Shown here: positions 81-61,341 of the stretch, in pieces
How positions within the stretch are numbered: position 1 is the first letter of the stretch
How the letters are laid out: every line of letters begins with the position of its first letter
Virus record (IMG/VR): IMGVR_UViG_3300047095_000292
Location: 1-64,000 of that record
DNA: 64,000 nucleotides
DNA from: a virus
Reading direction: 5' to 3' (one strand)
Position numbers and translations under genes: made by a program
Notes under the pieces: model-generated
The model's database searches: none
Told to the model about the DNA's origin: nothing
Seen by the model: only the letters and a program-made list of their open reading frames with translations

Positions 81-82
<2 letters not shown>

Positions 83-3226: not shown

Positions 3227-3256
3227 GTATTCATATAAGATACCTGGAAATGCGCA
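3227..3256 (-). promoter_or_regulatory. Phage promoter-like motif A, copy 3
   Basis: TGCGCATTTCCAGGTATCTTATATGAATAC, immediately after the late-operon terminator. Confidence 0.7.
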
Positions 3257-6961: not shown

Positions 6962-6976
6962 GATAGCTCCTATTGA

Positions 6977-11127: not shown

Positions 11128-11151
11128 CTTATCATTAATTTAGCGGGTTCG
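11128..11151 (-). promoter_or_regulatory. Late promoter-like motif B, copy 1
   Basis: CGAACCCGCTAAATTAATGATAAG, identical to 52153..52176; upstream of the fibre operon. Confidence 0.7.
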
Positions 11152-20100: not shown

Positions 20101-23100
20101 ACCATTAGACAACATAGCAGGAATATCATCCGATGTACCTGATCCTGGACCCTGTATAAAACCACCTGTGGCATAGCCAGCGGGAACAATTCCTGATGAA
20201 GATGCGCCTGAAGCAAAGAATGTACCTAGTAATTCAGATGATAAATCCTGTAATACTAATTTCTTTGTAACATCATATGAATCATTTAGATAACCGTCAT
20301 CTACGAAATCTTTAAATATATCTATATAGTTTCCTGTACGTGGATATGGTGGCATTCCTGTCTGCTTATCTAGATAGGAGCGTTGAGCAACAGCTAATCC
20401 CTTTCTAGAGAAATCGGTTATCCATTTAGCATTCTGCAAGGCATAATCAGTAGCTACCCACTCTTCATCCACAGGATTTAGTATATAAGGTACAGTTTTC
20501 ATTAGTCCTTTATACTTTTCTATATCAACATCTGATATCTTGCTAGCTAGAAAGTCTAGAGTAGTTCTCAGAGGAACACCATCAACTTCAGATACACCTT
20601 GTTTTTGTAATTCTAAATTTCTATTATATTCTTGTATAATAACATCACGTTTGATTGTATTCTTATCGATTAAATCTAATATATCAGATGGCATCCGTTT
20701 TTCAAAATCTCTTAGGTGACCTATCTCATGCATACCAATTAAATAGGCTAAATCTAGACCGTTTCCTTCAAACTGCATAGGATCCGGTATATTCAAGATG
20801 CGACTCCACCAGAAATACTTAGAGTCGGCCATATTGCCTAAATAATTTATTTGTCTAGCACCCGTTGCTCTTCCAGTCAAATCGGCTAATGCAGCATTCC
20901 TAGCATCACCTAACGGCATATCTACAAGACCGCCTTCGGCGAATTTAGCTACGCGTCCGCTATTGATAGACTCTAATAGGCTTCTATTCTTTTTAGTAGA
21001 CTTGGCATTTACAACAAATTCACCATTAGATAACAATGCTGGTATAGAATCAGAGGTCTCAGTTCCTGGACCAGTAATATGCCCACCTGATGCCTTCTTA
21101 ATAACACCCTCTGTCTGCGAATCCTTTTGCAGTACTGAGACTTGATTATTAGTAAAGAGAGCACTAAACATCTGATACTTAGAATCTATCCAATTTCCCA
21201 TTGTTGAGAATGTATCCGATATGCTTTTAGTAGTCTTTGTTAATACATTATCAGTCATTAGTACCCATAGTTCATACTGTTTGCTTGACTTACCGTCCTG
21301 TGAAACTACTTTATACTGCTCATTCAAACTCTTAAGTAGTTCAATATAAGTTTCTATGTTTGCATTTGCAGCAGGGATATTGAAACTAATATCACCGTTA
21401 GACTTCGCTGCGGATACTTGATTCTGTAAGACTTTAATTACCCGCATTGTCTCTATCATCTGAGAGTCGTATGCATCAGGTGTAAGATACGCTGTACCGC
21501 CACCACCACCGATCTTACCTACTGAAGTTCTAGATATATCCTTTGGAGGTTCTCCGGTAAGGGCAGCTAGACGTTCCTTCTTACTAGAGCCTGAGCTGTC
21601 CTTATTAGTCCACCAATCTCGCAATGCCTGTACAATAATATTAGCGCCCTGCGTCATTCCATCTACAATTGCATCTAAAAGGAAACCACCAATCATCATA
21701 GCTTCTTTTGGATTAAATATAATAGCAGCTAATAATCCGGCCATTAGAAGCATTGGAGAAGTTAGTGCAGCTATTAACATAGTAGATAATACTGCTGCAC
21801 CTGTGGCACCTACTAACTGGCCAAGGATACCACCTCCTATAATGTAGCCAATCTTACTATACTCAGGCAAGTCTAATCTATCTTTAACATGAGCTTGCCC
21901 TGCTGCAAATCCGGCATAACCTCCAACGAAACCACCTACTGCCGACAATGCTGAGATTGTACCTTGTTTAGCGGTAGACATAGATTCTGCCATCCCTGCG
22001 CGTATCTTGTCAGCATTAGATCTAACAGCGTTAAGCTCAGGTGTTAGCCTTGCTACTTCAGCCTTCGCAGAAGCTACAACAGCAGCAGATATTGCTGGAT
22101 TATTAAGTCTAGCAGTAGCGGCAGTCATAGCCTCACGATGTTGTGCTATTATAGGATTACTCAATGATACCGCAGTAGCATTAGCCTGTGTAGCCCTTGT
22201 AAGAGATTGCAATGACTGTGTATAGACTTTAGCAGCAGCAGCACGTTCAGCAGGATCTGCTGCAGCGCGTTCAGCTTGCTTTAATCTTGTTTCAATACCT
22301 GCTATTCCTGCAAAAGAGGTATTTCCAGGTATCCGATTTAATAATGGCGTACCTTTTTCTATTGCGCTAAGCTCCATCTTCTTTGCAAGGAAACCACCTA
22401 CAGTAGTAGGTGCTGATATAAACTTCATCAAGGCTGGTCCGATTGCTTCTCTATTACTTGAAGAGAATATTACAGCAATGGCACCAACTTTAAGAATCAT
22501 TTCCATTAGGCCTTGCCCAATAGCTAGAGCCTTCTCTCCTGCAGAGTTTGCGCCATCCATCAATCTAGATATAGGTCCAAATATTCCCTCGCCAAAGATG
22601 CCTATCTTAATACTATTTAGTACACTTAACATTGATTTAACAGTAGCTACAAGTGCACTAATAAGAGTATTACTATCAACATTATCAGCCAGCATTTTTG
22701 CAGTAAATGCTGCGCCGCCCACTGCTGCTAGCTTCAGCGGCATCATGGAACCTGTATAATGTGAAACCAATGCACCTACTGCGGTTGCCAAGACAGTAAT
22801 AGCTGCTCCTAGTGATACTGTAGCCTTAACCTGATCTTCAGGCTTAAAGAGACTAATTATATCATGCGCAAAAGGTCGATTCACTTCTGTTCTGTGAATA
22901 CCGAAAGGAACCTTATTTACACCATCACTGTCCTGTATTCCAACTACCTGTCTTATCTTTTTACCTGTATCAGATGTTTGTAACTTCTCTAGCTGATTTG
23001 CAACAAACGGAATATTAGAAATTTTATCAAGAAGCGCTTCATACTTTTCTTTGGTCCAAATAGCTGCAGATCTTACGAAAGCAGCAGTAGCCTCCCCAAG

Positions 23101-25251
23101 ATTAATAATACCATCATAGAGGACAGATCCTGTTGCCTTTAGTGCACTCCATGTCTTAGACAAGATACCTTCACTACTGCTAAATATCTCAGCAAGTGTA
23201 ATAATGTACTTTCCAAAAGCATCAGTTGTGGCTTTAGCATTAGCAATATTAGCAACAGAGGTCTGTTCTGTAGCAAGATTAGAGGCCAGCTGCGGTGTCT
23301 CTATTCTATCAAGTACTACAAGTTTCTTAGCCTTTCTTCGCTTTACTCTTAGTTCCTCATCTTTTGCTAATGTCTGCGCAGCTAGAGTGTCACTAAAATT
23401 ATAGGGCTTAGCCTCTTCTACCTGATCACCTGCTCCACCAACACGTGCCCTTATCATGATTCTGTTTGGATCAGGCGGCAATGCAGCTAGCGCAGCCCTT
23501 ACCTGAGCAGCTGTCATCTTGCTCCAGTCATTATTAGTACGTGTATCTTTTATTTCTTTTATCTTTGTATTAGTCTCAAGTACAGCTGGTGTTATTGTGT
23601 CATTTACCAGAGTAACTTGTTGCACAGTGGGTGTGCTATTCTCGAGCTTCTTGTCAATACTAGTTAACAATGCAGTGGCTTTTGGTGATTCAGTCACAGT
23701 AGCTGTTGCTGTATCTTCAAAGCTAGCAGCAACCGCAGAAGTTATACTATTAACAGTATTTGCATTATTTGCTGCGGTGATTTCTGCAACCTCTTTTAGC
23801 TGAGTTGCCACTATTGTTGCTGTATCCTGCACAGGTACATTTCTTATAGTAGATGTAGAAACATCTGCCATTTGTACCACTTCAGCTAATCGATCAGCTA
23901 TAATTAATGCAGCATCACGGCCTACTCCACTATTTTGTGAAGGTGCGCTAGTTGAAGTAACACCTGTCACTTTAATGTTAGCATCTCGTACTATATCTTT
24001 GAATGTGTCTTTCTTAAACAGACCTATAATACTAGTAAATTTATTAGAGAGTTTATCGAAGATAGTACCAACGTACCCGCTGAAGTCCTCAAAGGCTGAT
24101 ATAACACTACTTATAAAAGAGTTTATAAGTGCTAGCGGTGCATCTGAAAGTTTACCAAACCACTCCACAATCCCATTTACAATATCAGGGATATATGAGT
24201 GTCCAATTAACTTGTCATACAGCCAAGCAAATAGACCTTCTACCTTAGTTGTAAAATTAGTAATTAAAGCTAGTGTATCTGTTATGCCAAAATCAAATTT
24301 AAAGGTCTTTCCAGCAAAGCCGGTAAGTATATCAAAAAAGTCTAGAAACTTCTGCTGCAGACCTCCTATAAGATCCAATACAGGCATCATGGAGTGCAGC
24401 ATTTCTAGCTTAAATGTCTTAGTATCTCTTAAGATTCGCAGTCCGAAGTCTGCAACACCTTTGGCAATATTATTCAAGAATACAGCTATCGGATTATTAG
24501 TGCCAAGAACTTGAAACAGCACTTGACTCCATACAGTCATAGCATTACCCATGTTGTTAAACATAGATGCAAAAGTTACCATCTCTTGCATGTTAGACCG
24601 TATTGCACCGGATTGCTTTAGAATGGCATCAAAGATCTGAGAAGAAGTTAACTTACCTTCTTGACCAAGTGCTCTTAACTTAGCAAATGGGACGTCCATC
24701 CCTCTTGAGATAACACGCGCGAGTTCTGGAATGTTTTCTAAAATTGACCTAAGTTCATCACCTTGCAGTACGCCAGAGCTAAGTGCCTGACCTAGCTGCA
24801 TCACACCTGCAGATGCCTGCTGCGCACCAACACCCGATTGCTTAATAACTAATGCAACGTTTTGAGTAACTTTTAAGGCCTCACTTTGTGTTGCTCCTAG
24901 TGCTTCGGATGCTCTGTTCAACTTAATAAACAGATCACCAATATCCTCAATAGCTGCCCCTGCTTCTACTGCAGTCCTCGCAACGTCCTTAAATGAGCCC
25001 ATTGCACCTGCGGCACTTTTATTAACGCTAAGTAACCTGGCGTTTAGAACAGTTAACTTGTCTGACATATTTACAATAGCAGTTGTGCCTATTGCGAACA
25101 TTGCAATATTCTTAACAGTATTCATCAAGTTGCTGAAACTCATAGACGTTTTGTCTACAGTTCCTGCAATACTTGATACAGCCATTTCTAATTTCTTTAA
25201 GTCAGATTCAGCTTTTTGCGTATTTGCTTGTACATCAATCTGTAGTGCCAT
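17131..25251 (-). CDS. Tape measure protein (2706 aa) with HEXXH-type and lytic transglycosylase-like inserts
   Basis: QLGQALSSGVLQGDELRSILEN tape-measure domain; 4 GPGS/TxTSDxIPAxLSNGE repeats; MHEIGH; TERSG...GAVGTAQI...AAVYHGG. Confidence 0.92.
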   Translation of the reverse strand: MALQIDVQANTQKAESDLKKLEMAVSSIAGTVDKTSMSFSNLMNTVKNIAMFAIGTTAIVNMSDKLTVLNARLLSVNKSAAGAMGSFKDVARTAVEAGAAIEDIGDLFIKLNRASEALGATQSEALKVTQNVALVIKQSGVGAQQASAGVMQLGQALSSGVLQGDELRSILENIPELARVISRGMDVPFAKLRALGQEGKLTSSQIFDAILKQSGAIRSNMQEMVTFASMFNNMGNAMTVWSQVLFQVLGTNNPIAVFLNNIAKGVADFGLRILRDTKTFKLEMLHSMMPVLDLIGGLQQKFLDFFDILTGFAGKTFKFDFGITDTLALITNFTTKVEGLFAWLYDKLIGHSYIPDIVNGIVEWFGKLSDAPLALINSFISSVISAFEDFSGYVGTIFDKLSNKFTSIIGLFKKDTFKDIVRDANIKVTGVTSTSAPSQNSGVGRDAALIIADRLAEVVQMADVSTSTIRNVPVQDTATIVATQLKEVAEITAANNANTVNSITSAVAASFEDTATATVTESPKATALLTSIDKKLENSTPTVQQVTLVNDTITPAVLETNTKIKEIKDTRTNNDWSKMTAAQVRAALAALPPDPNRIMIRARVGGAGDQVEEAKPYNFSDTLAAQTLAKDEELRVKRRKAKKLVVLDRIETPQLASNLATEQTSVANIANAKATTDAFGKYIITLAEIFSSSEGILSKTWSALKATGSVLYDGIINLGEATAAFVRSAAIWTKEKYEALLDKISNIPFVANQLEKLQTSDTGKKIRQVVGIQDSDGVNKVPFGIHRTEVNRPFAHDIISLFKPEDQVKATVSLGAAITVLATAVGALVSHYTGSMMPLKLAAVGGAAFTAKMLADNVDSNTLISALVATVKSMLSVLNSIKIGIFGEGIFGPISRLMDGANSAGEKALAIGQGLMEMILKVGAIAVIFSSSNREAIGPALMKFISAPTTVGGFLAKKMELSAIEKGTPLLNRIPGNTSFAGIAGIETRLKQAERAAADPAERAAAAKVYTQSLQSLTRATQANATAVSLSNPIIAQHREAMTAATARLNNPAISAAVVASAKAEVARLTPELNAVRSNADKIRAGMAESMSTAKQGTISALSAVGGFVGGYAGFAAGQAHVKDRLDLPEYSKIGYIIGGGILGQLVGATGAAVLSTMLIAALTSPMLLMAGLLAAIIFNPKEAMMIGGFLLDAIVDGMTQGANIIVQALRDWWTNKDSSGSSKKERLAALTGEPPKDISRTSVGKIGGGGGTAYLTPDAYDSQMIETMRVIKVLQNQVSAAKSNGDISFNIPAANANIETYIELLKSLNEQYKVVSQDGKSSKQYELWVLMTDNVLTKTTKSISDTFSTMGNWIDSKYQMFSALFTNNQVSVLQKDSQTEGVIKKASGGHITGPGTETSDSIPALLSNGEFVVNAKSTKKNRSLLESINSGRVAKFAEGGLVDMPLGDARNAALADLTGRATGARQINYLGNMADSKYFWWSRILNIPDPMQFEGNGLDLAYLIGMHEIGHLRDFEKRMPSDILDLIDKNTIKRDVIIQEYNRNLELQKQGVSEVDGVPLRTTLDFLASKISDVDIEKYKGLMKTVPYILNPVDEEWVATDYALQNAKWITDFSRKGLAVAQRSYLDKQTGMPPYPRTGNYIDIFKDFVDDGYLNDSYDVTKKLVLQDLSSELLGTFFASGASSSGIVPAGYATGGFIQGPGSGTSDDIPAMLSNGEFVVNAKSAKKNRALLDSINSGISFSKFSTGSPTASTPEDIKLLFKAILGTERSGPEAISEKGAVGTAQIIKKTFDGVNKEFFRGSLSFEIEADRVKAALRHVEDLSSKYNGNVTKIAAVYHGGPNALDAVGNIKPGYKEHLENGGGTKTTDYADSVLKKYALLKGNESKSDEPATIAEKVKSKIAKATALFDGIGDALMSGDLEKAASLFKTAAVTVFGKMTEGLGNMMKGDPGLFAFETTDKMAEELSKQSKSINRGEGNLGLASIDIKLPENITAEMINTMISNKSLDQINNQYNELKGSLALYNKTVDELTVKLKAQSVPTEQITEALNKEAKFRLAAEGLASAAASYKDLIEVKGSKPTINNGPNLSQFGVPGLTFDSLYQKLGEKEYKATLNLMSMKEDYNKRIENPKLPAWERTLYTNAVKDINELLEKTKEGLIDGEKGWMANLPRISAESKAAAGAVTRSFTEGLSAGLKELVKGKITFKTFMTQQIDSFTAKILESAVDGLTKQIFGSTANNMLDFVFGSVRDLGVRVGGGEPIRKTDAGSAVKLVETSSDSVVTAIDNAAGDTSMALSAAGKDIESGNGGLLATLSRLGISVKNALFDALKGVGGFFGIGLGEGESSGLGKMLDNVGGWFKNSFGFASGGPISGPGSGTSDSIPAMLSNGEFVVNANATARNKALLHAINNGNVAHFAEGGEALAAIPSIAASPAVANLSSNVGIADINKPISLLSDNINTVNQSLEEKTQMLANGINTTIEGTIKGFQTVDKTIEHLSMSIQQQQIDNAKYEADNMQIPEGGWSFGSLLGLGVSLAGIAFKGGMFGGGSQLSSIGTPQGGFTANTLDTYTNPIFSSGAPVRLHAAGGSIYGPGSGTSDSIPAMLSNGEYVVNAVAASKYRNLLENINNNSIARFADGGLVGADVLAPALGSLGNVKESNKEPITQTSVFNINITGDISRQTRSEIQKMLPEIAVGVGQVNRERGSKR

Positions 25252-28562: not shown

Positions 28563-29819
28563 TTAGGAGTGGAACACTGGCAGAATGCCAAGACTTAGAG
28601 CAGAACTGGCCTTACGCTTCCAAGTACCGGAAGTAGTGGTAGTCATTGCAGTCAGGTCAGTCAGCAGCTGAGGCATAGAAGCAGCGATAGCACCGGCAGT
28701 GTGCACATCGGTAGTTGCAGGAGTACCACCAGTACAGCCTGCGGTATCAACCACGTAACCATAATGTGCATCTGACGGGAACTGAGTCGTTAGACCGTTC
28801 CAATCGTAACCGCCTGGATGTGCAACATAACCCCAACGATACCAGATGTCGGTAGTACCACCACCACCATATGCGCGAGCATCACGATAGATTTCAACTG
28901 GAGTAGGAACAGCCAGTGATTCCATAGCAATAGAGCCAGGCAGTACGATGAAGGAGGTCTTAGTACCAACGATATCAACACCAGCACCAGCATTAAGCTT
29001 AGCTAGTTGTGCAGTGCTAAAACTCTGAGCAGCACGAGTCTGGATCAGACGGAACTTACCACCGAAGATAGTGTCAAAAGTGACATTGGCTTCAGTTACT
29101 TTGGTCTCATCTACTAGATTAGCTGAACGCAATGATGCGAGCGTCTCTGGACTAACAACTAGATAAGCAAAGTCTGGCTCGTAGTCTTTCCATGCCATAC
29201 CGACAGCATTCAGGAAGCCTTCTGCACGAGCAGCACCTTGGATAGCAGTAGTAGCGGCAATAACAGGTTGAGCAGCACCGAGGTCCACGTAAAAGCCATA
29301 CTTCATATCAGTAGGATCATTGGTGAAGCTTTGACCACCTAGACCAGTTGCGGTAGAACCAGTAGCAGTACCATATAGAGCTTCGGAGGTTGCTACACCT
29401 TTCAGAACAGCAAGAATAGCATTGTGCTCATCCTGTGAACGAGTCTCACCGAAGTCACGACCAATCTTGGCCAGACCATCAACCTGAGTAATAACTTGCT
29501 GCATATTTACTTGGTTAGCGCCATGCGTACGGACAGTCTTGACATAGGTCGAGAAATCTGACGTGTAGTTAGTAGCAACACCAGCAGTAGAGGCGGTCAG
29601 TGAAGCAACGTTAATGGTAGGGTTAATTGGCTTGAACCAACGAACTTGTCCAATGAAGGTCTCAGTGGAAGTGTCAATGTTAGGGTTCGGGCCAACAATA
29701 CCTGTGCCTGAAAGCTTCTTTGCATTGGTATAAGCCTCGTCACTATAAGCACCAATAGCTGCTTGTAGAGCATAGGTGTTATTACTAGGGGATGCTGCTT
29801 GGGTGTAAATTTGAGCCAT
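28563..29819 (-). CDS. Major capsid protein
   Basis: 418 aa after scaffold; strong codon bias; VEIYRDA...GGGTTDIWYRWGYVAHP. Confidence 0.85.
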   Translation of the reverse strand: MAQIYTQAASPSNNTYALQAAIGAYSDEAYTNAKKLSGTGIVGPNPNIDTSTETFIGQVRWFKPINPTINVASLTASTAGVATNYTSDFSTYVKTVRTHGANQVNMQQVITQVDGLAKIGRDFGETRSQDEHNAILAVLKGVATSEALYGTATGSTATGLGGQSFTNDPTDMKYGFYVDLGAAQPVIAATTAIQGAARAEGFLNAVGMAWKDYEPDFAYLVVSPETLASLRSANLVDETKVTEANVTFDTIFGGKFRLIQTRAAQSFSTAQLAKLNAGAGVDIVGTKTSFIVLPGSIAMESLAVPTPVEIYRDARAYGGGGTTDIWYRWGYVAHPGGYDWNGLTTQFPSDAHYGYVVDTAGCTGGTPATTDVHTAGAIAASMPQLLTDLTAMTTTTSGTWKRKASSALSLGILPVFHS

Positions 29820-29831: not shown

Positions 29832-30554
29832 TTAGAGTTTGCCCTCCGCTGCGAGTTTTAGAACTTCAGCTTGGGACATATTAAATAGAGATTTCTTACC
29901 AGTAGGTGCTTCGCCAGTTCCAGCACCGGAACCTTGACTACCACCACCAGTATTTACCTTTGCTTTGAATAGAAATGACTGTTCATCGTCTCTTGAAAAG
30001 GCTTCACAATAGTCCTTGATAGAGATGCCAGTACGATGTACCCACTGGCCTTGCTCATTCTGAACCAGGTTACTAACAATCTCCTTATATGCCATATCAG
30101 AAGCTTTATCGTTTCTGAAGGTGTAACTCTTAAGTGCATCGCGCACAGCAACATCACGGCTTAGTTCCGTGTTTTGCTTTCTAAGAGCTTCATTTGTGGC
30201 TTTTTCTTCAGCAAGACGCATTTCAAAAGCTTCTTTGTGTTTGCCATCTTCCTCAAGTTTCTTTAGAGTTTGTTCCCTTTCCTTTGCTTCGAACTCTGCA
30301 TTCTTTTTAAGTGCAGCATCTCGTGCAGCGTAAGCTTTATCGAGATTTGCCTTAATAGGTGCTAGTTCTTTCTCAAGTCGATCTTTGACCAGTTTAGAGA
30401 TCATATCCTGATCACGCTCTTCCTGAGATAGACGCGACAAACGTGCTGTCTCTGCCTCTTGCTCTGCAGCAACTCGTGCGGCTTCCGCTTCTGCGTCCTT
30501 TACGGCTTGTGCAGCAGCTTCAGCTTCGGCAGCAATCTTTTCTTCTTCAGTCAT
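29832..30554 (-). CDS. Capsid scaffolding protein
   Basis: Charged coiled coil with G/S-rich C-terminal tail, directly upstream of capsid. Confidence 0.85.
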   Translation of the reverse strand: MTEEEKIAAEAEAAAQAVKDAEAEAARVAAEQEAETARLSRLSQEERDQDMISKLVKDRLEKELAPIKANLDKAYAARDAALKKNAEFEAKEREQTLKKLEEDGKHKEAFEMRLAEEKATNEALRKQNTELSRDVAVRDALKSYTFRNDKASDMAYKEIVSNLVQNEQGQWVHRTGISIKDYCEAFSRDDEQSFLFKAKVNTGGGSQGSGAGTGEAPTGKKSLFNMSQAEVLKLAAEGKL

Positions 30555-30612: not shown

Positions 30613-33600
30613 TTAACCGATTCCATACCAGTACCTGTTATCTTTAAACTGTCCAGGGACAGCTGCAAGGATATCTTCTCTGGTTAGAATATCTGCCTGC
30701 GTTAATAGCTTACCATCGATCCTTGACCTTCCAGCCACAGGTATCAGACCAATATCGATAGCTTCATTCATGTACTTTAGATATAACTCACGCGGCATTC
30801 CGCGAGCGTACATTTCATCTAGAGTAGCTTTTATTGATTCACTTTGTACTGCTCTTGCATAGATTTCTTTTAAGGCCTGACGAGATTCTAACATATCTGC
30901 TGCATTTGTAAAGAAGGCGTCGTGTCTTTGTGTTCAAAAATGTTCGTTAAACATTCTCAGTATTGTCGAGTTAGTTATTTAATAATTCTTCCAAGTGTTA
31001 CCAATTCTTATTTGCCTAATAGTGCTAGGATGCGCATTGTAGCTAACTGCAATTTCAGCATCAGATATTCCATTCTTAATTTTAGATCTTATATCAGGAA
31101 TGTTCTCTGCTGTTATCTTGCGGGTCCGCAACTTACCACCATAACGACCAATCACTTCAAGACCTAAATGTGTCCAGCTCTCGCCAAGGCGTATTGCGTT
31201 AATAGATTGACGTGTGACACCATACATAGCAGCAATCGCGGTATCTTTATACCCTACTGACATATAGTATATAATATCAGGAATATCGTCCTCTACTAAA
31301 ACAGATTCCGGTCTACCAGAACCATTTAGCATAAGACCTGTATCATACGCATGTTGGACGTTTTCACGAGGTGTTGCCCACGCTAGATTACCAACTACGT
31401 TATTATCTCTAATTCCGTCTAAATGATTTACTTGTGTTTTGTTTTCTGGATTAGGTATAAAAGCTTCTGCTACAAGTCTATGTACTTTCGCCCTGAATGG
31501 TTTACCATCTACTTCTATTTTAAAATGTCTATAACCATTTTGCAATGAACCATACGTAAGCAAACCAGTGCTTTCGCGCCTTAATCGCCCCAAACTGCTT
31601 ACAGCATATCTCTTATCTTTATTGCATATACACCAAAATTCTTCCATTACATTTACTCCTTGTGTCTCGACAACACATCTGCATATTACTGTGCAGAACA
31701 GACTATATCTTCAACAGCCTTATTGCTAGCTGTTGCCCCGCGTTTCGAGCAGACTTCTGCCCTACTCTACTTGGTAGTTACACCGTTCGATAGTCGTTGC
31801 ACCTTGCTCTTGCGAGCCTTGGCTCAGGATTGCCCTTATGAGGGTGTCCCCTGAATTAGCGGAGTTTTACTACGGCAAGTTATTCACCGTACCTGTTTGA
31901 ATATTATTCTTTTGTCCCCATAGATGAAATTGCTTTACGATAACCGCATCGTTCAGTTTGTTCAATAGTGTTCGTTAAACGCTATCGGTATTGCGCCAAT
32001 TAGCATTTTACTTCCTTTAATGTTGCTTGGCGCGCAACACCTGCATGTCACCATGCAGCTCAGACTATCTCTTATACTATTACTAGTATCTCTACGTTTC
32101 GAGCAGACTACTGCCCTATGGACTTCATCTTCTGTTCTAGAAGGTATGTCCTAGTCGTTGCACCTTCAAAACCATTCCTGGTTAAGCTTGGCTCAGGATT
32201 GACTCATGGAGTGTTTCCCTGAATTAGTAGAGTTTATTCACAGCATTTTGTTTACTGTGATTACCGTTTACGGCGTAAGCCGTTCTAGCCTTGCCAGTAT
32301 CTACAATATCGTTAATAGTACCTTTCTTATTTAGGAAGTACTGTTCCCATGTTGTAGGCTCTGTCTTTTGCTGTACCTGAATAATATTATTTATCCATTT
32401 ACCTTCAGCATTTTTGTATGCAAGCTTCTCTTCAAAGGTCTGCGTAAATACCTGTTCCAGAGTTTTACCATCAAAGTTTACCCATGGAATATTAGTCCAA
32501 GACTTTGGTAGCTTATTATCGTAACCAACCTCAATACCTTTGGTAACATCGATACCGGCTATATCAAACTTACCGATTGTAAAGCCAGTCTTTCGATCAA
32601 CAGGAGATTTATAACCCATGATAATATTAGAGACAGTACTGTCTGGCACATATCCGGGAATACGATTAAGTATCTTTTCTTTAATACTTTCATCCTTAAT
32701 CCCAAGTGTACGGCTTAACCATTTAGGTAGTCTCTTACCTGCTTTATAATCACCGTATATTGCAGTCTTTAGAGTAGACACAGGGGCAATACTAGCTGCC
32801 TTTGGTTTAGCATGTAAGGCATAATCCTCAGCAAGTCTACCGAAGAACTTAGTAAAGTCCTTTAAGATAGGTACTTGTGATCTTAAATTCTCGGACATGA
32901 TCATTGCAATCTGTTGAAAATCGTCAGGTGTCACGACCTTGCCATATTCCCTGCTAAGTTTCTCAACAAAGTCTCTTGTACGGGGTTCAAGGAAATATAG
33001 TTGTTCAAGCATATCATCACCAGGAGCTAAGCCCTTATTGAACATATCCTTCACATCTTGTCGCAATGCCTTCAGTTCTCGATACATATCTGGATCGAAT
33101 TTTTCATATCGAGCCATCCTTGCACTGATCTCCGACATGACAGCATCACGCTCACTGGCCTTTACAACAAGAAAATTTTCCTGCTTCTCTAATACCTTAG
33201 CAAGTTTGTTTTCTACGTTCATAATGCCTGTACGCTCGCCTGCTCCGTAAAATGTTACCATATTTTGCATTTATGTTTAGTATGATTCGTTAAGTCATAC
33301 TGGTGTTATTGTCAAGTTTGTTAATTAGTAATTAGTCCAAGTTTTCTTTGCTATTCTTAATACTACCCATATTACTTACGAAGTATGGTAAGTTGTCTAT
33401 CTGTTTCCAAATCTCGTCCATTTTATACTTTCACATGTGTCTTGACAACACCCTGCATGTTACCATACAGATCAGACTATATCTTCAAAGTAGCATAGCT
33501 ACGATGTCCCCCGTTTCGAACTCACTTGAGTCCTACGTCTTTCGACTAGTCGTTGAACCTTCAAAAGTGTTTCCACTTAAGCTTGGCTGCTGATTGTCCT

Positions 33601-36600
33601 GCAACAGGAGTTTCCAGCAATTAAAGGGATTTTACAAGACCAAAAATTAGCCTTGGAAGCCTTACGCAAATCTTTCTCTGTCAGACCTAGCTTCTTGTTA
33701 AGTTCTCTGAACCTTGGATCATTAAAGGTACTTGCTGCTATCTCGTCGTATAACCTCTGCTTCTGATTAGTAGGTACCACATTACTAAGTTGAGCTAATT
33801 GTTTATTCTTTGTGGCAAGTGCAATAATCTGTGCTCCAGAAGAGCTAGCATCTTGCTCTAGTGCGATGGCTATCTTATAGCTGTTAAGCCTCTTCAAGCT
33901 AGCCGCAGAATAATCACCTCCTAAGTATTCGTTTATCTTAGACATCTCTAAAGCAAACCGTAGGACTTTTCCCTGTTCCTCTCCGTCGATCTCCTGTAAA
34001 AATTTTGATTCTAATATTTTGCGTATATCATTAGGCTTACCACGACGCATCTGATCACCAAGTTGTATCATGTCTTTGCGCCACAGTGTAGCAATCTGTT
34101 GTCTACCAAGTACTGATAGCGAGTTATACCTGTCTTCTAGATGATCAGATGCTCCACCTAGAAAGGCTCCTATCTGGTCCTGGAAGTTAGCAAACTCAAT
34201 ATCGCTAAAGTTCTTAGCCTGCGCCGTGTTTAAAAACGGTCTACGTTTATGTTCAACAGTATTCGTTAGATACTGCCAGTACTTACCAAGCATTGTTATT
34301 GTTTAATAGTTTTTCCAGGTCTTACCAGATATAATGCCAGAGATAGTGCCGCTATGCACATTATAATCTCTGCCAATAGAAGCTAAACTTTCTCCAAGTT
34401 CGTGTCTAGTTCGTATATCTGGAATATCCTTACCTGATAGTTTTTTCTCACATATGCTACTTTTAGGACTCTTAGCTGGAAACACTAAGTCTGGTCTAAC
34501 TTGTTTCCATGTATCCAAGGTTCGTATCTTAGATATTGTTCCTTTATTAACACCAAACAGCAATCCTATTTCGGTATTATTTAACTCATATTCTACAAAT
34601 AGCTTTTTAATATTTTCGACATTCTCTTCATTTAGAACAGCTATGTATGTATCCGAACCAGAAACGCACATATCATTTGACCAAGCGTGTTTCATATTAT
34701 CTACATGCGAAAGCCATTCTAAGTTTTCTACTCGATTATCCGTTTTCACTCCATTGATATGATTAACTTCAAGTGATAGATCTTTATTTTCTATAAACGT
34801 TATTGCAACCAGACGATGCACTGCAATCGTAATATCATCTATATTTACAGCTAGATAACCTTTGCAGTTATCTTTAACTTTTAGCAGTTTCTCACTTTTA
34901 TTCGACCATACATTTCCTAGAGTGCTAATTAAATACTGCGTATTCTTATACTGTTTCCAAATTTCTGTCATGTTAATCTTCCATGTCGTGCTTGGCAGCA
35001 CTTCTGCAATTTCGTTTCCTTATATGCAGACCAGACTATATCATCACCGCTGTCATAACAGTACGGTGTTGCGCGCTTCCATCGGACTTCCGATGTACTC
35101 CCGTAGGATAGTCGTTGAACCTTCAAATTCATTTCTGAATAAGCTTGGCTGCTGATTGTCCATTAACGTATGGAGTTTCCAGCAATTCACGCAATTTTCG
35201 ATGTATATTACTATACAAAGCTTCTGATAACAAAAGTTTCTCCGCTTTGAGGCCCAATAAAGCCTCGTTCATATATACGTGCGCGATGATCTAGGAAGGG
35301 ATGATTGCTGAATGCAACATCCTTTGTCCTAAGCCATTTCATTGACTTAAGCCTCTCATATGCATCACCACGTTCAATCATATACTCACGATACTTGTTC
35401 AAATCATTGTAATACTTAGCTGCACCCTTATCATCTTGAAAGTTTATAAGCTTCTCAATGAAATCATGAAAGTCTGGATCTACCTTGTATTTTGCTGACG
35501 CTGCCCAATTAAGAGCCCTTGTCATATCTTTATCAATTAACTTGGCAGGGAAATCGCTAAAGGAACTTGTAGATGTAATAGGAATTCGAGTATCCATTAG
35601 TCCATACATACCCCTATCAACAAAGTATGTTTTATAGCCCTCACGTATCAAGAGTCTATTACTATCTACAGTAACACCAACACGAAGACCCACATCTACC
35701 TTTCGAGTAAGTCTAGCATACTCTTGAATCCTGGGATCTACAATTCGTAGATTCACTGAGAATGTATCATAGTATGGACCAAAATATGCTCCAAAGTTTC
35801 TACTCTTCATTCTACGTTTCTGTACGCCAAAGGTCTCTAATTCATAGAAGCCCTTACCATGCGCGTCATCTAACAGCTTTACTCCAAGATTATACCATTC
35901 GTTACGGCTACCACGATAGTTAGCCATATTATATAAGTCACGGCCTAGTGCAACTGCTAATTGGTCTCTATCAGGTGAGTCTGCTAGACTAAGACGCCTT
36001 GCAAACTTTAAATAGAAATTATCCAACTGTTCATCATCTAGCCTTATCTTTAATTTAGCGGGTAGCCTGAAGTCTAGTATGTTACGTAACTCTTTAGCGA
36101 TCTTCGGAGCAGTGCGATCTTCCCATTTATTCTTAGCAATTATATTAGAAATAAAGTTATCATGTAGCTCTTGTAACTGAGTTGGACCAAGAACTGGATC
36201 AATATAATTAGCTTGCTTTAATTTGAAAAGAAGATTAGCATCTTTTCTAATTTGAGTCTCGATATAATCAGATACGTTCATAATATCAAACTTAATCTGA
36301 CCTTGTAAGACAGCCTTCATGTTAGTCCATGGCTCTTTGTTATCACGAAAACGCCCAAAAGTTATCCGGAGATTTTCAGTAATTACTGCCCTCTCGTTAA
36401 CACCCATGTGATCTTCAAGGCCATCTACAAAGTTCTTAATGAACTCTTTATCTCTAGGTAGAAGAGACTCACTCTCATCTACAAGTTTATACGTATTACG
36501 CAATGTATCAGGACTTGGTTGGTACATACGGGAATCATCGTACCTGCCAGTGATCGGATTATATTTTAAATTCTCTTCTCTAGGTGGTGATCCAAGTACT

Positions 36601-37862
36601 CTTGCCTTAGTATTCTTTTTATTATGTAGTAAAGTGCCTCGATAATTCGTAAGAGAAAGCGTACCATCTAGCTCTCCTGATTGCAATATGTAATATTCTT
36701 TAAGAGCTTTCTGGAGTTCCTTATTGTCATAAAATTCATCAGGTCTTGCTGCACCTAACTTAATTACATCCAGTCTCTCCTTCGCCAACGCGAATCTTCG
36801 AGTGTCACCTGGAATTCCATACCCAGAGTCAGTAAGACCTCTAAGCTCTCTAATCCCGACGCTATTGCCGCCTGCATTAGAGAACTTGTCCAAGGTAAGC
36901 TGTCCTGATCTAAATAGCTCAAGCTTTGTTGTATCGCCAATGTGCTTGAATTGCACCTCAACGGGTTGTCGTTGTAGCCACGCATTATATGATTCCTTAA
37001 GAGGAGTTTGTCCATCGTATAAGGCAATCTGTTTAGCTGACAATCCTTCAAAATTCCTTTTGCGAATTTGTGCAATACCCTCTAACGAACCGAGTTGGTC
37101 ATAGCTCTTAACTATTGGTATTGTCGTCGATCTGCAGTACCAGTGTGCTGGTGGCAGATGCTCATGGTCACTTATCGGGTAGATAGTTCCATCCCTTGAC
37201 GCACATAAAGGGGTAGTCCTAGAATCTAATACGGCAACATATTGCCATCCTTGTAATGCCTTTTCATTAGCTTTGTAAACTTCATGGTCAGCCTGAGCAT
37301 ATACACTTGTCGTAGCTGTAACTGTAAGGCCTTTAGCCTGATTCTTTGTTATATTAAAGGTAGACTTAGATATAGACTTAGCAATTTCATTTTCATTAAG
37401 ACCTTCTGCTATACCTTTTCTAATCAGCCCTTCAATACGTATCTTCTCATTCTTTCCAATCCCTGCCCAGCCCTGATCTAGTGTTTTATCAAGGTATATC
37501 GGCCTGTGCAATACAATATCCTCTGCAACACGCCTAGGCGGTTGTGATACTCGCCAGATACGTCCAATTGCATCATCCATATTTTGAACAGCATAGGAAG
37601 TCTGATCCTTGAACAAGTCTAAGAGAGAACGGCTAGACACATTGTGTGCATCTGCCATTGTCTTTATAATTTCTTTATCGAGACTTGCTTGAAAGCCTTT
37701 AAAGCCTGTTCCACGTAACTTTGATTCTTTGATAAGACTATCAACGCGCACTGCATGTCCATCAATAATTAACTCTACTTTATTAGAAGTACGTTGCTCA
37801 TATAAGCGTATCATTGCTGCACGATTGATACTCTTATCATAAATCTGTGTATTAACATTCAT
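30613..37862 (-). CDS. MuF (SPP1 gp7-like) minor head protein fused to T7-family single-subunit RNA polymerase; 5 exons (37862-35233, 34243-33649, 33267-32254, 31953-31886, 30925-30613), 1539 aa spliced
   Basis: MuF: WQYVAVLDSRTTPLC...PPAHWYCRS. RNAP: LDHRARIY...PQSGETF/RPFL, motif A EQDASSSGAQI, motif B RKASKA/QNMVTFYG, NHS/NDA, motif C TV/HDAF. Exon lengths sum to 4620 nt in frame. Confidence 0.92.
30926..31885 (-). mobile_element. Group I intron 4 (960 nt) with homing endonuclease
   Basis: P1 UACGGU/GCCGUA with U-G; core AAUUCAGGGGA, AAUCCUGAGC, GUGCAACGACUA, AAGAUAUAGUCU; terminal G; splicing restores V-H-D-A-F. Confidence 0.92.
30979..31647 (-). CDS. Intron-encoded NUMOD4/HNH homing endonuclease (I-HmuI-like) with two C-terminal HTH repeats
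   Basis: YAVSSLGR, HRLVAEAFIPNP, VNHLDGIRDNNVVGNLAW, GNTWKNY. Confidence 0.9.
   Translation of the reverse strand: MEEFWCICNKDKRYAVSSLGRLRRESTGLLTYGSLQNGYRHFKIEVDGKPFRAKVHRLVAEAFIPNPENKTQVNHLDGIRDNNVVGNLAWATPRENVQHAYDTGLMLNGSGRPESVLVEDDIPDIIYYMSVGYKDTAIAAMYGVTRQSINAIRLGESWTHLGLEVIGRYGGKLRTRKITAENIPDIRSKIKNGISDAEIAVSYNAHPSTIRQIRIGNTWKNY
31954..32253 (-). mobile_element. Group I intron 3 (300 nt), no ORF
   Basis: P1 UCACAGU/GCUGUGA; AAUUCAGGGAA, AAUCCUGAGC, GUGCAACGACUA, AAGAGAUAGUCU; terminal G; restores H-S-N-D. Confidence 0.92.
33268..33648 (-). mobile_element. Group I intron 2 (381 nt) with deleted endonuclease remnant
   Basis: P1 CAAGGCU/GGUCUUG; AAUUGCUGGAAA, AAUCAGCAGC, GUUCAACGACUA, AAGAUAUAGUCU; terminal G; restores motif B R-x3-K-x7-YG. 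Confidence 0.92.
33325..33421 (-). pseudogene. Internally deleted homing endonuclease remnant
   Basis: MDEIWKQIDNLPYFVSNG* followed by KKTWTNY*, matching the N- and C-termini of the intron 1 and 4 endonucleases. Confidence 0.85.
34244..35232 (-). mobile_element. Group I intron 1 (989 nt) with homing endonuclease
   Basis: P1 CUUU/UG-UUAU-CAGAAG with U-G; AAUUGCUGGAAA, AAUCAGCAGC, GUUCAACGACUA, GAUAUAGUCU; terminal G; restores ETF-RPFL. Confidence 0.92.
34303..34971 (-). CDS. Intron-encoded NUMOD4/HNH homing endonuclease
   Basis: MTEIWKQY...YLISTLGNV, HRLVAITFI, VNHINGVKTDNRVENLEW, GKTWKNY. Confidence 0.9.
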   Translation of the reverse strand: MTEIWKQYKNTQYLISTLGNVWSNKSEKLLKVKDNCKGYLAVNIDDITIAVHRLVAITFIENKDLSLEVNHINGVKTDNRVENLEWLSHVDNMKHAWSNDMCVSGSDTYIAVLNEENVENIKKLFVEYELNNTEIGLLFGVNKGTISKIRTLDTWKQVRPDLVFPAKSPKSSICEKKLSGKDIPDIRTRHELGESLASIGRDYNVHSGTISGIISGKTWKNY

Positions 37863-37870: not shown

Positions 37871-38347
37871 TTAGGACGGCTTATGAAATTCCCCATGATG
37901 TTCAGCCGTAACAGCATCACGAGCCTTGCTTGCTTCCTCTGCAGTATCGTATAGACCGATAGTATGGCGGTTTCCATCAACCACCACCCTCGCCCTCCAC
38001 TTACCACTAAATTTATCTATCCCTTTAAATCCTGACGTGTTAGTACTAGGTGCATTTCTATTCTGCATATTTTGTTCGGCAGTAGCAGGTCGCAAATTTT
38101 TTATACGGTTATTGAGACGATTAGTATCTCTATGATCAACTTTCTCAGGTATGTCGTCATGATGCAACATATAGATCAATCGATGGACCTTATATGTTTT
38201 ACCACCATATTTCACCTGCAGATAGCCTTCGCTATTCTTAGTGCCCACAGGAGAACCCTTAACTATTGAAGGGCCTCCATTAATATTCCAGAACAATTGA
38301 CCGTCTTTATAGTAGAATGTTTCTTTAATCTGCTTCTGGGTCAGCAT
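37871..38347 (-). CDS. Free-standing HNH-AP2 endonuclease
   Basis: HRLIY, VDHRDTNRLNNRIKNLR, NTSGFKGI; likely start MLTQKQIKE. Confidence 0.88.
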   Translation of the reverse strand: MLTQKQIKETFYYKDGQLFWNINGGPSIVKGSPVGTKNSEGYLQVKYGGKTYKVHRLIYMLHHDDIPEKVDHRDTNRLNNRIKNLRPATAEQNMQNRNAPSTNTSGFKGIDKFSGKWRARVVVDGNRHTIGLYDTAEEASKARDAVTAEHHGEFHKPS

Positions 38348-39983
38348 TAGGCTTAGCCTTCTTAAGTGGTGTCTTAGCTTTAGGTGTTGATATACCAGCC
38401 ATGTCTGCAACCTTGCTAGCATAGCTGTCGGCATCAACTTGGCCCATCACCATATCATCTTCAGTAATCTCGATCTGACCCTCTTCGTCATTATAATCAG
38501 GACTAATCATATCATTAACTTTGAGAATCTGTAGCCAAATAGAACGAGGAATGAGTCCACTCTGATACCATTCAGTAGCAAGACGTAGCCAATCAGCACC
38601 AAGTGGGGTTGGATTAAAGTCAGCAGACAACTCAAACTCAATATCAGTATTTTTAAGCTGTAAATCATAGCGCCAGTTAAGCATAAATGCAATAATAGAC
38701 GCCATCTGATTACTTACTTTAATATTAAGAGTTCCTAATTGAGCAGTCTGAGCAGCATTACGAATGTCCAGTGCAACACCTGACTGTTGAGTTTCTGGTG
38801 TCAGCATACGAATACCCAGCTTAGCCATATCCTCAATAGCAGATGCAATAGCTCTATCCATGTCTGTAAGTGCAGCAGTAGGTGTATCAAGGACAGTAGC
38901 TGTAGCACCTTCTGGGAGCTTAAGCCAGGTGCCTAAACCGGCATCTACAATTGCATCAAAAGCATCATCAGTTATATTTCCCGTCAATACAGGTGTATAC
39001 GTAGACGCGCCATACAACAGATGATTACGTCGGCTCATTTTATTATATAGTGCAACTTCCTTATCAATAAAAGGAGATAGCATAGGTTCAATAACACGAA
39101 TTGAACCATTTAATGGCCATGCAGGAATCTGTGTAAGACGCTCGCCATTCATTAGAATAGTTTCAAGTGTCTCGACTAGCTCATAAGCTGACAATTTAGG
39201 ATCAGCCCCAGCTGCATTCTGCGTATACTTCTGTTGTAGTTTGCCGTTAACAACAATCACCTGCGCATCTTCTACCTTCTTCTCATATCTACGGATACGA
39301 TAGAAACCTTCTACGATTTCATGTACGATAACAGTATCTATATAAGACGGATGAAATTCGTTTTCTTCAACGCGCTCTACGTAGTTTCTAACGATAATCT
39401 GTTCTAGAGACTGTACACCAGTATCCTCTCGAGTCGATACTCGCCAATTAATTATAGATTCAGCGTTCCATATTACAGGATAGGGTTTCAGTTCAGCATA
39501 CTGTTCCCTAGTAAGATCTTCTGGGTTTAATATCTTAGGATAGTCTACATACACCCATGCTCTGCTTGTCTGAACTTCTTCCCATAGAATTTCATCAAGA
39601 AAAGAGACCAGCGGTGAGCTATTATGGCTAAAGTGATTCATTATCCATTCATATGCTCCAGCTGGCACCTTACCTTCTGGAAGCTTAAGCTGAGGTTGTT
39701 TCCTTAACAGACCACCAATAATAATGCGAGCATATTGAGAGACAATACCTGGGAGTTCTGCTTCTGCCTTGTAGAATTCATATTGCTTTGCATCCATTGA
39801 GGGCGAGAAAGGGATCAGCAAATTGCTAAATGTCAGTACATCAAGGTAGCCATCAAAGTCCTTAGCAAAACGCTCACCACCTATAATTGCTCTCGATTTT
39901 TCCCATAAACCTCTCATTGACTCGTATGAAGATGTTGGATCTGCTACTGAACGCTTGTGTTGAACTGCATTGACTACTGACAT
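38325..39983 (-). CDS. Portal protein (DUF4055-type)
   Basis: 552 aa; AWVYVDYP, PYPVIWNAESIINW; position upstream of MuF gene. Confidence 0.85.
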   Translation of the reverse strand: MSVVNAVQHKRSVADPTSSYESMRGLWEKSRAIIGGERFAKDFDGYLDVLTFSNLLIPFSPSMDAKQYEFYKAEAELPGIVSQYARIIIGGLLRKQPQLKLPEGKVPAGAYEWIMNHFSHNSSPLVSFLDEILWEEVQTSRAWVYVDYPKILNPEDLTREQYAELKPYPVIWNAESIINWRVSTREDTGVQSLEQIIVRNYVERVEENEFHPSYIDTVIVHEIVEGFYRIRRYEKKVEDAQVIVVNGKLQQKYTQNAAGADPKLSAYELVETLETILMNGERLTQIPAWPLNGSIRVIEPMLSPFIDKEVALYNKMSRRNHLLYGASTYTPVLTGNITDDAFDAIVDAGLGTWLKLPEGATATVLDTPTAALTDMDRAIASAIEDMAKLGIRMLTPETQQSGVALDIRNAAQTAQLGTLNIKVSNQMASIIAFMLNWRYDLQLKNTDIEFELSADFNPTPLGADWLRLATEWYQSGLIPRSIWLQILKVNDMISPDYNDEEGQIEITEDDMVMGQVDADSYASKVADMAGISTPKAKTPLKKAKPNADPEAD

Positions 39984-52152: not shown

Positions 52153-52176
52153 CTTATCATTAATTTAGCGGGTTCG
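52153..52176 (-). promoter_or_regulatory. Late promoter-like motif B, copy 2
   Basis: CGAACCCGCTAAATTAATGATAAG, upstream of the packaging/structural operon. Confidence 0.7.
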
Positions 52177-52231: not shown

Positions 52232-52333
52232 AAAAAAAAAAAAAAAATAAAGGAGACCCTCTAACTAACACTATACCTACCCAATTAAGGGCAAGTATAG
52301 TGTTAGTTAGAGGGTCTCCAATTTTTATTTTTT
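52232..52333. terminator. Long perfect hairpin (25-bp stem) flanked by A- and T-tracts; likely bidirectional terminator
   Basis: GGAGACCCTCTAACTAACACTATAC (52252-52276) and its reverse complement (52295-52319). Confidence 0.85.
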
Positions 52334-57333: not shown

Positions 57334-57392
57334 AAAAAAAAAAAAAAAAAAAAAAAAAATAATGGACAGGTACTGTTTCCAATCCCTGTCTA
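57334..57392 (-). terminator. Intrinsic terminator with 26-nt T tract
   Basis: GACAGG...CCTGTC hairpin directly followed by poly-T on the minus strand. Confidence 0.75.
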
Positions 57393-57401
57393 TATTCCCT
57401 T

Positions 57402-57754: not shown

Positions 57755-57784
57755 GTATTCATATAAGATACCACAAAAGCCGCA
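57755..57784 (-). promoter_or_regulatory. Phage promoter-like motif A, copy 4
   Basis: TGCGGCTTTTGTGGTATCTTATATGAATAC. Confidence 0.7.
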
Positions 57785-61213: not shown

Positions 61214-61243
61214 TGTACCATATAAGATACCCCGTATTGCACA
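61214..61243 (-). promoter_or_regulatory. Phage promoter-like motif A, copy 5
   Basis: TGTGCAATACGGGGTATCTTATATGGTACA. Confidence 0.65.
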
Positions 61244-61341
61244 ATTGCAGTACTAGGGTTAAAACGCCAACCGTCCTCCAGTTGGATTACAAACGGCCTT
61301 TTCAGACCAATTTTTATATCATTAATTTTGCTAGGTGTATT

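Follow-up and report, generated by a model that had tools for sequence, protein, structure and literature searches.

A MuF head-morphogenesis domain fused to a T7-type RNA polymerase in a gene with four group I introns: a candidate virion-packaged polymerase of a siphovirus

Introduction

The stretch of DNA analysed here, referred to as the window, comprises bases 1-64000 of IMG/VR record IMGVR_UViG_3300047095_000292, a viral genome of 91,907 bp rated complete by CheckV. Its subject is a single gene on the minus strand (37862..30613), composed of five exons and four group I introns, which encodes a MuF/SPP1-gp7 head-morphogenesis domain joined to a complete single-subunit RNA polymerase (RNAP) of the T7 type. 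We propose, with a rough probability of 0.6, that this MuF-RNAP is packaged in the virion and transcribes early genes at the start of infection. This reading is strengthened by a second, canonical T7-like RNAP in the same genome, by the fact that the fusion is the sole MuF protein of the phage, and by two classes of promoter-like motif found in relatives that also carry two RNAPs. The fused architecture can be seen in precomputed Pfam matches, so that databases in that sense already contain it, whereas the literature searched does not; the second, canonical RNAP and the two conserved motif classes in two-RNAP relatives are newly found.

Gene Structure and Splicing

The exon model was built from the U·G pair in the P1 helix, the G that closes each intron and a conserved tail at the 3' end, with the splice sites read directly from the sequence (Table 1). 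Joining the exons gives 4620 nt and a protein of 1539 amino acids (aa) with a single terminal stop, the same length as in the original prediction. The junctions of the spliced protein read GETF/RPFLNT, RKASKA/QNMVTFYGAG, NGNHS/NDAVIVK and TGT-V-HDAFF; all four are free of gaps when aligned with eight intron-less homologues of ~1540 aa, and exon 4 aligns with these homologues residue by residue.

Four complete group I introns (Rfam RF00028) are detected on the minus strand, with scores of 72-89 bits where the gathering score is 50. Before each 5' splice site stands a U whose partner in P1 is a G, as in intron C (CACAGU/GCUGUG, with the U·G at the splice site) and intron D (UACGGU/GCCGUA, with a terminal G at the other end), and each intron closes with a final G after a shared tail, in which a hairpin around TAACGA is followed by TGAACAnAAnG. 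The score, the U·G pair, the terminal G and the restored reading frame that mark a group I intron are found in all four. The insertion points lie at or beside the most conserved motifs of the polymerase, with intron A just 3' of DxxGR; homing introns normally target conserved motifs of essential genes. Among relatives the introns are sporadic, and a search of ten related loci with Rfam gave two in one locus (L011) and one in another (L021). Within intron B, a 29-codon open reading frame (ORF) at 33421-33332 (-), beginning MDEIWKQIDNLPYFVSNMGS..., resembles the endonucleases encoded in introns A and D over their N-terminal NUMOD4 part, a similarity which points to a decayed homing-endonuclease gene.

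In the ORF list, the interval from portal to scaffold contains disconnected frames: an 883-aa ORF that starts with a Phage_Mu_F domain, and three more frames (238, 348 and 93 aa) that contain polymerase-like motifs, between which stand two HNH_3/NUMOD4 endonuclease ORFs. The original prediction had stated that the gene is hidden from ORF callers, and this holds. The introns number four and not three, which makes five exons, and the mini-exon appears in no ORF list. The strings that it quoted, WQYVAVLDSRTTPLC...PPAHWYCRS, DHRARIY and QDASSSGAQI, are all found in the sequence, and R-x3-K-x7-YG, NHSND and VHDAF are likewise present, but formed by splicing alone, across introns B, C and D, respectively.

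The MuF Domain and the Polymerase

The first 344 residues form a MuF/SPP1-gp7 head-morphogenesis domain. In exon 1, aa 143-248 give 61 bits with Pfam Phage_Mu_F (PF04233; cut-off 29.6 bits, E 2e-16), and phrog_241, 'head morphogenesis', matches over aa 1-343 (E 5e-56). An AlphaFold2 (AF2) model of exon 1, with a mean predicted local distance difference test score (pLDDT) of 81.7, is interrupted by breaks at 345-353 and 436-440, and these breaks divide it into three units, namely MuF (1-344), a small helical domain (354-435) and the start of the polymerase. The C-terminal half of this model gave matches to polymerases of T7 and mitochondria and to N4 RNAPII, in each case to the N-terminal domain; a Foldseek search with it returned RNAP N-terminal domains only, with no solved structure for the MuF part, which is assigned from the profiles. 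The position of the gene is also that of a MuF family member, directly 3' of the portal gene with only an HNH ORF between, and the portal is the expected docking partner of the MuF domain.

From aa ~560 to its end, the protein is a complete single-subunit T7-type RNA polymerase with all catalytic motifs. Single exons remain below the Pfam RNA_pol threshold (exon 2 gives 17.4 bits in a weak match over aa 134-191) because the introns cut the RNA_pol domain, and phmmer with single exons against solved structures (PDB) gave nothing relevant. Intron-less homologues with 60-74% identity reach 45-46 bits against the PF00940 cut-off of 22, and the phmmer alignment of a homologue is collinear with T7 RNAP at DxxGR, D537 and D812. 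In motif A, the D of LEQDASSSG falls on T7 D537, and in motif C (HDAFF; T7 IHDSFGT) the D falls on D812, while R-x3-K-x7-YG of motif B is rebuilt across intron B by splicing. Over 58-60 family members, the motif A D, the motif B R, K and Y-G, the NHS-ND residues, the motif C H-D and the nucleotide-selecting residues are invariant or nearly so; in DxxGR, which reads DHRAR, A replaces G across the whole family.

The fold of the polymerase was modelled on a homologue, P0069 (its C-terminal 1128 aa; 59% identical to exon 3), and not on the window protein. The AF2 model (pLDDT 82, predicted template modelling score 0.80) aligns with T7 RNAP (8dh5_M) in VIA-align at Z 30.2 with a root-mean-square deviation (rmsd) of 3.7 Å over 524 residues, and the match spans model residues 154-1127 and T7 residues 38-882, with the N-terminal domain included. 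The same model gives Z 20.7 against the N4 mini virion RNAP (mini-vRNAP), and Foldseek places it with mitochondrial and T7 RNAPs (E 5e-17). The modelled fold is that of a full T7-type RNAP with its N-terminal domain, kept under strong purifying selection, and the fused enzyme is predicted to carry out DNA-dependent, promoter-specific RNA synthesis.

Profile matches, the fold and hundreds of intron-less homologues all support the originally predicted fusion of a MuF domain to a T7-family RNAP. The checks that the prediction had proposed point the same way: Phage_Mu_F is matched in exon 1 and RNA_pol in the intron-less homologues, the homologue model is nearer to T7 than to the N4 enzyme, and the intron-less genes occupy the same slot with the portal-scaffold position kept.

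Family and Distribution

A search with exon 3 for longer proteins returned 282 homologues, the best with 74% identity, and the family counts more than 280 metagenomic members; nearly all of the homologues are 1520-1560 aa long, mostly with PF04233 and PF00940 together, and lie on contigs of up to 108 kb. Their source annotation is 'SPP1 gp7 family putative phage head morphogenesis protein'. An exhaustive HMMER search with the polymerase part against 1.84 billion representative sequences matched 163 representatives, and every full-length match is a protein of 1400-2070 aa in which the matched region is the C-terminal ~1100 aa. No stand-alone form of this polymerase was found among the 1.84 billion representatives, nor did the family search of that set reach the canonical T7-like RNAPs. 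That all full-length forms are fused indicates that the fusion is ancient and obligate. Wherever the flanks are present, the 45 IMG/VR loci all show the same succession of genes, from portal through MuF-RNAP and scaffold to capsid.

Among deposited phages the gene occurs in three only: EBPR siphovirus 1 (54% identity) and the Naomviridae DSS3_VP1 and DSS3_PM1 (31% over 83% of exon 1). In megablast, the locus matched deposited phages in short endonuclease fragments only. DSS3_VP1 carries an intron-less 1463-aa 'head morphogenesis' gene with portal and major head genes on either side, and the names given to the gene in the deposited relatives are 'head morphogenesis' and 'minor head protein-like'. 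The genes gp47-gp49 of EBPR siphovirus 1 (JF412302) are annotated 'head protein', 'HNH endonuclease' and 'hypothetical protein', and look like the same polymerase gene split by one HNH-bearing intron. The original prediction had left room for relatives that were already described; they are indeed deposited, under head-protein names, but the polymerase is absent from the papers searched. The MuF-RNAP fusion is undescribed in the openly accessible full-text literature searched, which included the two MuF cargo surveys and the Naomviridae paper.

Fused and canonical RNAPs occur together in DSS3_VP1 and in four further related genomes (G002, G003, G004 and G005). A fifth, G001, is 98% complete and has the fused RNAP, while a canonical RNAP was not detected in it. 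In G005, the canonical RNAP match (C1:46656-48425) is in two parts with an in-frame TGA; an intron, stop-codon recoding or breakage of the gene may account for this. Between the fused and the canonical enzyme of this phage, BLASTP and hhalign find similarity only around motifs A and C; a recent duplication as the origin of the two RNAPs was considered and is ruled out by this motif-level similarity.

Promoter-Like Motifs

Two motif classes were found by k-mer counts, and both are conserved on the coding strand of five two-RNAP genomes, namely this phage and G002-G005 (34-52% GC). Class 1 has the 27-nt consensus aaAAC(G/T)GCGGaaAAtaagGTATCTTATATGA(A/G)AG, with 17 sites in the five genomes; its core can also be written ..AACGCGGaaAAtaagGTATCTTATATGA.., in this phage ..CTGCGCA..GGTATCTTATATGAATAC, and the 11-mer ATCTTATATGA is exact at 15 sites in the five genomes and at zero on the opposite strand. 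Class 2 has the consensus CCAACCCGTTAAATTAACCC(T/A), with the variant ACCCGCTAAATTAATGATAAG and the site form ACCCGCTAAATTAATGATA in this phage; its core CCCG(C/T)TAAATTAA lies on the coding strand of all five genomes, and it includes AATTAACCC, which would match the start of the T3 promoter.

The two classes differ in position. On the circular map, the canonical RNAP gene of this phage is preceded by three class 1 sites at distances of 1.6-3.4 kb, and in the conserved layout two or three class 1 sites come 0.8-4.6 kb upstream of that gene, before small ORFs. The first class 2 site stands just downstream of the canonical RNAP gene, and class 2 heads the structural operons; in relatives, a class 2 site is placed just past the MuF-RNAP stop codon, ahead of the scaffold and capsid genes. 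Tandem pairs, class 2 followed by class 1, recur at one locus. In G005, a hairpin with T11 stands directly against the ribosome-binding site of the canonical RNAP, which indicates that this gene is read from an upstream promoter, the nearest being of class 1.

No sigma-70 or Bacteroidota-type hexamers accompany the class 1 sites. Bacteroidota -33/-7 sites are not enriched (1 on the coding strand against 0.9 expected), and sigma-70 sites with <=1 mismatch number four only, none of them upstream of the canonical RNAP gene. The length of the motifs, their invariance across presumably different hosts and the lack of host-type hexamers together argue that they are promoters of phage-encoded polymerases. 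From the layout, class 1 must fire before the canonical RNAP exists. Since it stands ahead of the gene for that enzyme, its first use in an infection depends on the RNAP of the host or on a polymerase brought in along with the DNA. The same layout suggests that the MuF-fused enzyme reads class 1 and the canonical enzyme class 2.

G001 contains neither motif class and is uninformative on the pairing of enzymes with promoters. In DSS3_VP1, class 1 and class 2 as such were not found; its genome (NC_055826) has repeated promoter-like motifs of its own, AATAGGGTGCGTTAAAGAGGGG seven times, three of them just past the canonical RNAP gene, and ATAGGTTACGTTAAAGAGG three times.

Three very strong terminator-like elements on the minus strand, in each of which a GC hairpin leads into a run of 16-26 T and a closing GTTT, are seen in the window at ~22-77, ~52232-52300 and ~57334-57400, and delimit early, middle and late blocks. 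The canonical RNAP is the first large gene past a strong terminator. In G004, the same arrangement of hairpin, T-run and GTTTTACT stands ahead of the canonical RNAP region.

Proposed Role and Alternative Explanations

In the mechanism that we propose, the MuF domain would bind the portal in the manner of SPP1 gp7, which would place one or a few polymerase molecules in each head. At infection, the polymerase would leave the head with the DNA and transcribe the first genes from class 1 sites without host RNAP. The class 1 early units would comprise small takeover genes and, by read-through of the hairpin and T-run, the canonical RNAP gene, whose product would then use the class 2 promoters that head the replication and structural operons. 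The whole would amount to an N4-like or P23-45-like cascade run by two T7-type enzymes with a MuF delivery domain. It has been reported that SPP1 gp7 is targeted by a strong interaction with the portal into the procapsid interior in few copies and supports the start of infection, with virions that lack it being ~25% infectious (PMC6316719). MuF has been proposed as a carrier of C-terminal effector cargo (PMC5576092, PMC5512222), and a MuF homologue was detected by mass spectrometry in virions of siphophage ZC01 (PMC11619397).

Several points weigh against packaging and early transcription. No virion proteome of any family member was found in the literature searched, and packaging is deduced from MuF homology and gene position; the delivery of cargo by MuF is itself only a hypothesis (PMC5576092). 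A protein of 175 kDa would need to pass through a siphovirus tail and refold. The canonical RNAP could serve a T7 scheme in which host RNAP acts first, and near-consensus sigma-70 sites do occur in the early region, at 87302 and 87032. In four of the five genomes, transcription from the class 1 units would have to pass a strong hairpin with T-run to reach the canonical RNAP gene. In G001, without a detected canonical RNAP or motifs, the fused enzyme may serve the whole cycle intracellularly, and a polymerase made late would presumably be active before packaging, so that it may have a late intracellular role. Lastly, the fused and canonical RNAPs are both 57-64% conserved between genomes, so that co-variation does not discriminate between the two promoter assignments.

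The best placed of the alternatives, though still an unlikely one, is that the fusion is a head-assembly factor whose polymerase works only inside the producing cell, as a second RNAP specific for one promoter class on middle or late genes, or is clipped off by the end of assembly; it would then not reach the next host, and early genes would be left to host RNAP. It would account for the canonical RNAP in an early position, as in T7, and for the sigma-70 sites just named; it also agrees with G001, which apparently has the fused RNAP alone and would need it for intracellular work, and with the class 2 site in or beside the gene, by which the fusion would be made with the late proteins. On the other hand, an obligate fusion across a deep family is hard to explain if its halves act separately, the gene is always in the portal-scaffold slot, and class 1 precedes the canonical RNAP gene without host-type hexamers; for an enzyme made late to act there first, it must arrive with the virion.

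More doubtful is the view that the polymerase is packaged and ejected, but mainly pulls the genome into the cell or primes replication. T7 and N4 are known to draw their DNA into the cell by transcription, and the T7 and mitochondrial RNAPs, the enzymes closest in fold, are also known to prime replication. This view shares the evidence for packaging and fits the DNA binding of SPP1 gp7 and its activity at the start of infection. The conserved 27-nt promoters that stand before protein-coding early units in five genomes point instead to gene expression, and internalisation and expression are not mutually exclusive. It is very improbable that the gene is a decaying relic, broken by four introns and their endonucleases and with an inactive polymerase, for although ORF callers show fragments and single exons fall below the RNA_pol threshold, the introns score well above the Rfam gathering threshold with correct splice-site features, the frame after splicing is uninterrupted and collinear with intron-less homologues, and every catalytic residue is kept.

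Genome Context and Coordinates

The phage is a siphovirus, and the genes of the window lie nearly all on the minus strand. The placement of the gene between portal and scaffold, as originally predicted, agrees with its neighbours (portal phrog_145, scaffold phrog_206). A free-standing HNH ORF stands between the portal and MuF-RNAP genes; the 5' end of this HNH ORF lies within the last part of the portal ORF. The genome further encodes a T7-like replication set of primase-helicase, family A DNA polymerase, exonuclease, ligase and ribonucleotide reductase.

Table 1. Exons, introns, neighbouring genes and motif sites of the MuF-RNAP locus. Coordinates are those of the window unless marked as genome; (-), minus strand.
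Feature	Coordinates	Length	Match	Content or position
Exon 1	37862-35233 (-)	2630 nt		aa 1-877 (first two bases of codon 877); MuF domain aa 1-344, small helical linker domain 354-435, RNAP N-terminal domain, DHRARIY
MuF (PF04233) core	37119..37436 (-)		E 6e-19, 65 bits	single match in the 91.9-kb genome
Intron A	35232..34244 (-)	989 nt	Rfam 81.8 bits, E 3e-19; Rfam core 35243-35012	catalytic core, then endonuclease ORF
Intron A homing endonuclease	34303..35001 (-)		HNH_3 E 2e-8, NUMOD4 E 6e-6 (Pfam)	helix-turn-helix (HTH)
Exon 2	34243-33649 (-)	595 nt		palm motif A (LEQDASSSGAQI) and first half of motif B (RKASKA)
Intron B	33648..33268 (-)	381 nt	Rfam 89.4 bits, E 2e-21; Rfam core 33659-33453	within motif B
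Exon 3	33267-32254 (-)	1014 nt		second half of motif B (QNMVTFYGAG), fingers, NGNHS
Intron C	32253..31954 (-)	300 nt	Rfam 71.9 bits, E 3e-16; Rfam core 32287-32041	no ORF; between NHS and ND
Exon 4	31953-31886 (-)	68 nt		mini-exon; NDAVIVKQFHLWGQKNNIQTGT and two bases of V
Intron D	31885..30926 (-)	960 nt	Rfam 78.7 bits, E 3e-18; Rfam core 31933-31679	one codon ahead of motif C
Intron D homing endonuclease	30979..31647 (-)		HNH_3 E 5e-10 (Pfam)	HTH
Exon 5	30925-30613 (-)	313 nt including stop		motif C (V-HDAFF), C-terminal tail ending WYGIG
Free-standing HNH endonuclease ORF	37871..38437 (-)		HNH_3 E 2e-13	between portal and MuF-RNAP genes
Portal	38325..39983 (-)		phrog_145 E 4e-51; Pfam DUF4055	directly upstream of MuF-RNAP
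Scaffold	29832..30554 (-)		phrog_206 E 1e-6; synteny	directly downstream of MuF-RNAP
Major head protein	28563..29819 (-)		phrog_247 E 6e-18	
Canonical T7-like RNAP	genome 89315-91579 (-)	754 aa	phrog_414 E 1e-115	outside the window
Class 1 sites	1411-1440, 1894-1923, 3227-3256, 57755-57784, 61214-61243 (-)			
Class 2 site	52153..52176 (-)			heads packaging, head and tail operon
Class 2 site	11128-11151 (-)			second perfect copy
Class 2 site	36045..36063 (-)		one mismatch	within exon 1 coding sequence
Class 2 sites	61320-61337; genome ~86805-86824 (-)			

The ends of the record overlap by ~127 nt (window 13-139 equals genome 91781-91907), the overlap beginning within a homopolymer run, and a 127-nt end repeat occurs at the same place in G004. 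This overlap implies a closed circular or permuted map of ~91,768 bp, although IMG/VR lists the genome as linear. That the record ends are physical termini was considered and rejected: as the overlap starts in a homopolymer run, an assembly break is more likely.

Two other regions of the window are worth recording. The tape measure protein (17131-25251 (-), 2706 aa) has internal repeats and an endolysin-family region (phrog_971, aa 2326-2464). A GC-rich island at 4654-8000 (-), with a GC content of 0.49-0.58 against 0.41 overall, encodes a 480-aa protein that matches tRNA methyltransferase families (phrog_4752), and contains a gene with long GGC repeats at ~7216-7440.

Significance

To our knowledge, virion-delivered RNAPs are known from few lineages, namely the N4-like, crAss-like and phiKZ/AR9-like jumbo phages and P23-45. 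Each of these enzymes has changed views on how phages escape host transcription and the defences linked to it. If packaging holds, the MuF-RNAP would be the first T7-type enzyme delivered by a MuF-portal route and the first non-toxin enzymatic MuF cargo, and would lend direct support to the hypothesis that MuF domains bring cargo to a new host cell. A broader reading, for which we judge the case evenly balanced, is that phages have here a third independent route to their own transcription, in which a MuF-loaded T7-type RNAP with dedicated, highly conserved 27-nt promoters turns on a second, canonical T7-type RNAP that has a promoter class of its own, and makes them independent of host RNAP from the first minute. 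By the same evenly balanced reading, the system would be common in aquatic phages, including the Naomviridae with deoxyuridine-containing DNA (dU-DNA), and would parallel the RNAP pair of AR9 and PBS2 with unrelated enzymes. A pair of virion and non-virion RNAPs in the dU-DNA Naomviridae would, if true, match the situation in these dU-DNA jumbo phages.

The presence of the cultivable roseophages DSS3_VP1 and DSS3_PM1 (host Ruegeria pomeroyi) in the family makes the hypothesis testable now, and two new orthogonal polymerase-promoter pairs would be offered to biotechnology. There is also a systematic gap in annotation: hundreds of these genes are labelled 'head morphogenesis protein' alone, and those that bear introns are fragmented into unrelated-looking ORFs.

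Comparison with Known Systems

DSS3_VP1, DSS3_PM1 and EBPR siphovirus 1 carry the orthologous gene, DSS3_VP1 having a canonical RNAP of 735 aa as well. The paper on the DSS3 Naomviridae makes no mention of any RNA polymerase, including the two enzymes of DSS3_VP1.

With SPP1 gp7, Mu gpF and the MuF toxins, the fusion shares its N-terminal domain, its slot just after the portal and the layout with a C-terminal cargo. The cargoes of MuF toxins are ADP-ribosyltransferases, RNases and RelA-like proteins, in temperate Firmicutes phages with immunity genes, whereas the cargo here is a polymerase of 1100 aa in virulent-looking aquatic phages. The fusion does not have the marks of a MuF polymorphic toxin, as its C-terminal part is a polymerase and the next gene is the scaffold; a polymerase cargo is listed in neither MuF cargo survey (PMC5576092, PMC5512222).

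With T7 RNAP, the fused enzyme shares the whole fold including the N-terminal domain, DxxGR, motifs A, B and C, and the His and Tyr positions that discriminate the 2'-OH. It differs in its ~17% identity, in the A for G in DxxGR and in its larger fingers; T7 RNAP, moreover, is made after infection and is absent from the virion.

N4 gp50 of the Schitoviridae is a single-subunit RNAP of the T7 superfamily that is carried in the capsid and transcribes early genes before RNAPII takes over, and the same is proposed here. The N4 vRNAP has ~3500 aa, N- and C-terminal ejection and encapsidation domains of its own, no MuF domain, a podovirus virion and hairpin promoters, whereas the present enzyme has 1539 aa, a siphovirus virion and a MuF N-terminal part, and is nearer to T7 (Z 30 against 20). 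The N4-like phrog_2166 is not among the matches of the fusion at E <= 0.001 and is matched by the canonical RNAP; the fused protein does not have the architecture of an N4-like virion RNAP. A route different from that of N4 had been expected in the original prediction, and the enzyme nearer to T7, the much shorter chain and the unrelated delivery domain bear this out.

A parallel in overall scheme is offered by the Thermus phage P23-45, a siphovirus whose virion RNAP (gp96), fused to a structural protein, transcribes the pre-early genes, one of which encodes a second, non-virion RNAP (gp64; PMC10770324). The P23-45 enzymes are of the two-barrel, cellular type and the carrier is the tape measure protein, whereas in the present phage both enzymes are of the T7 type and the proposed carrier is MuF.

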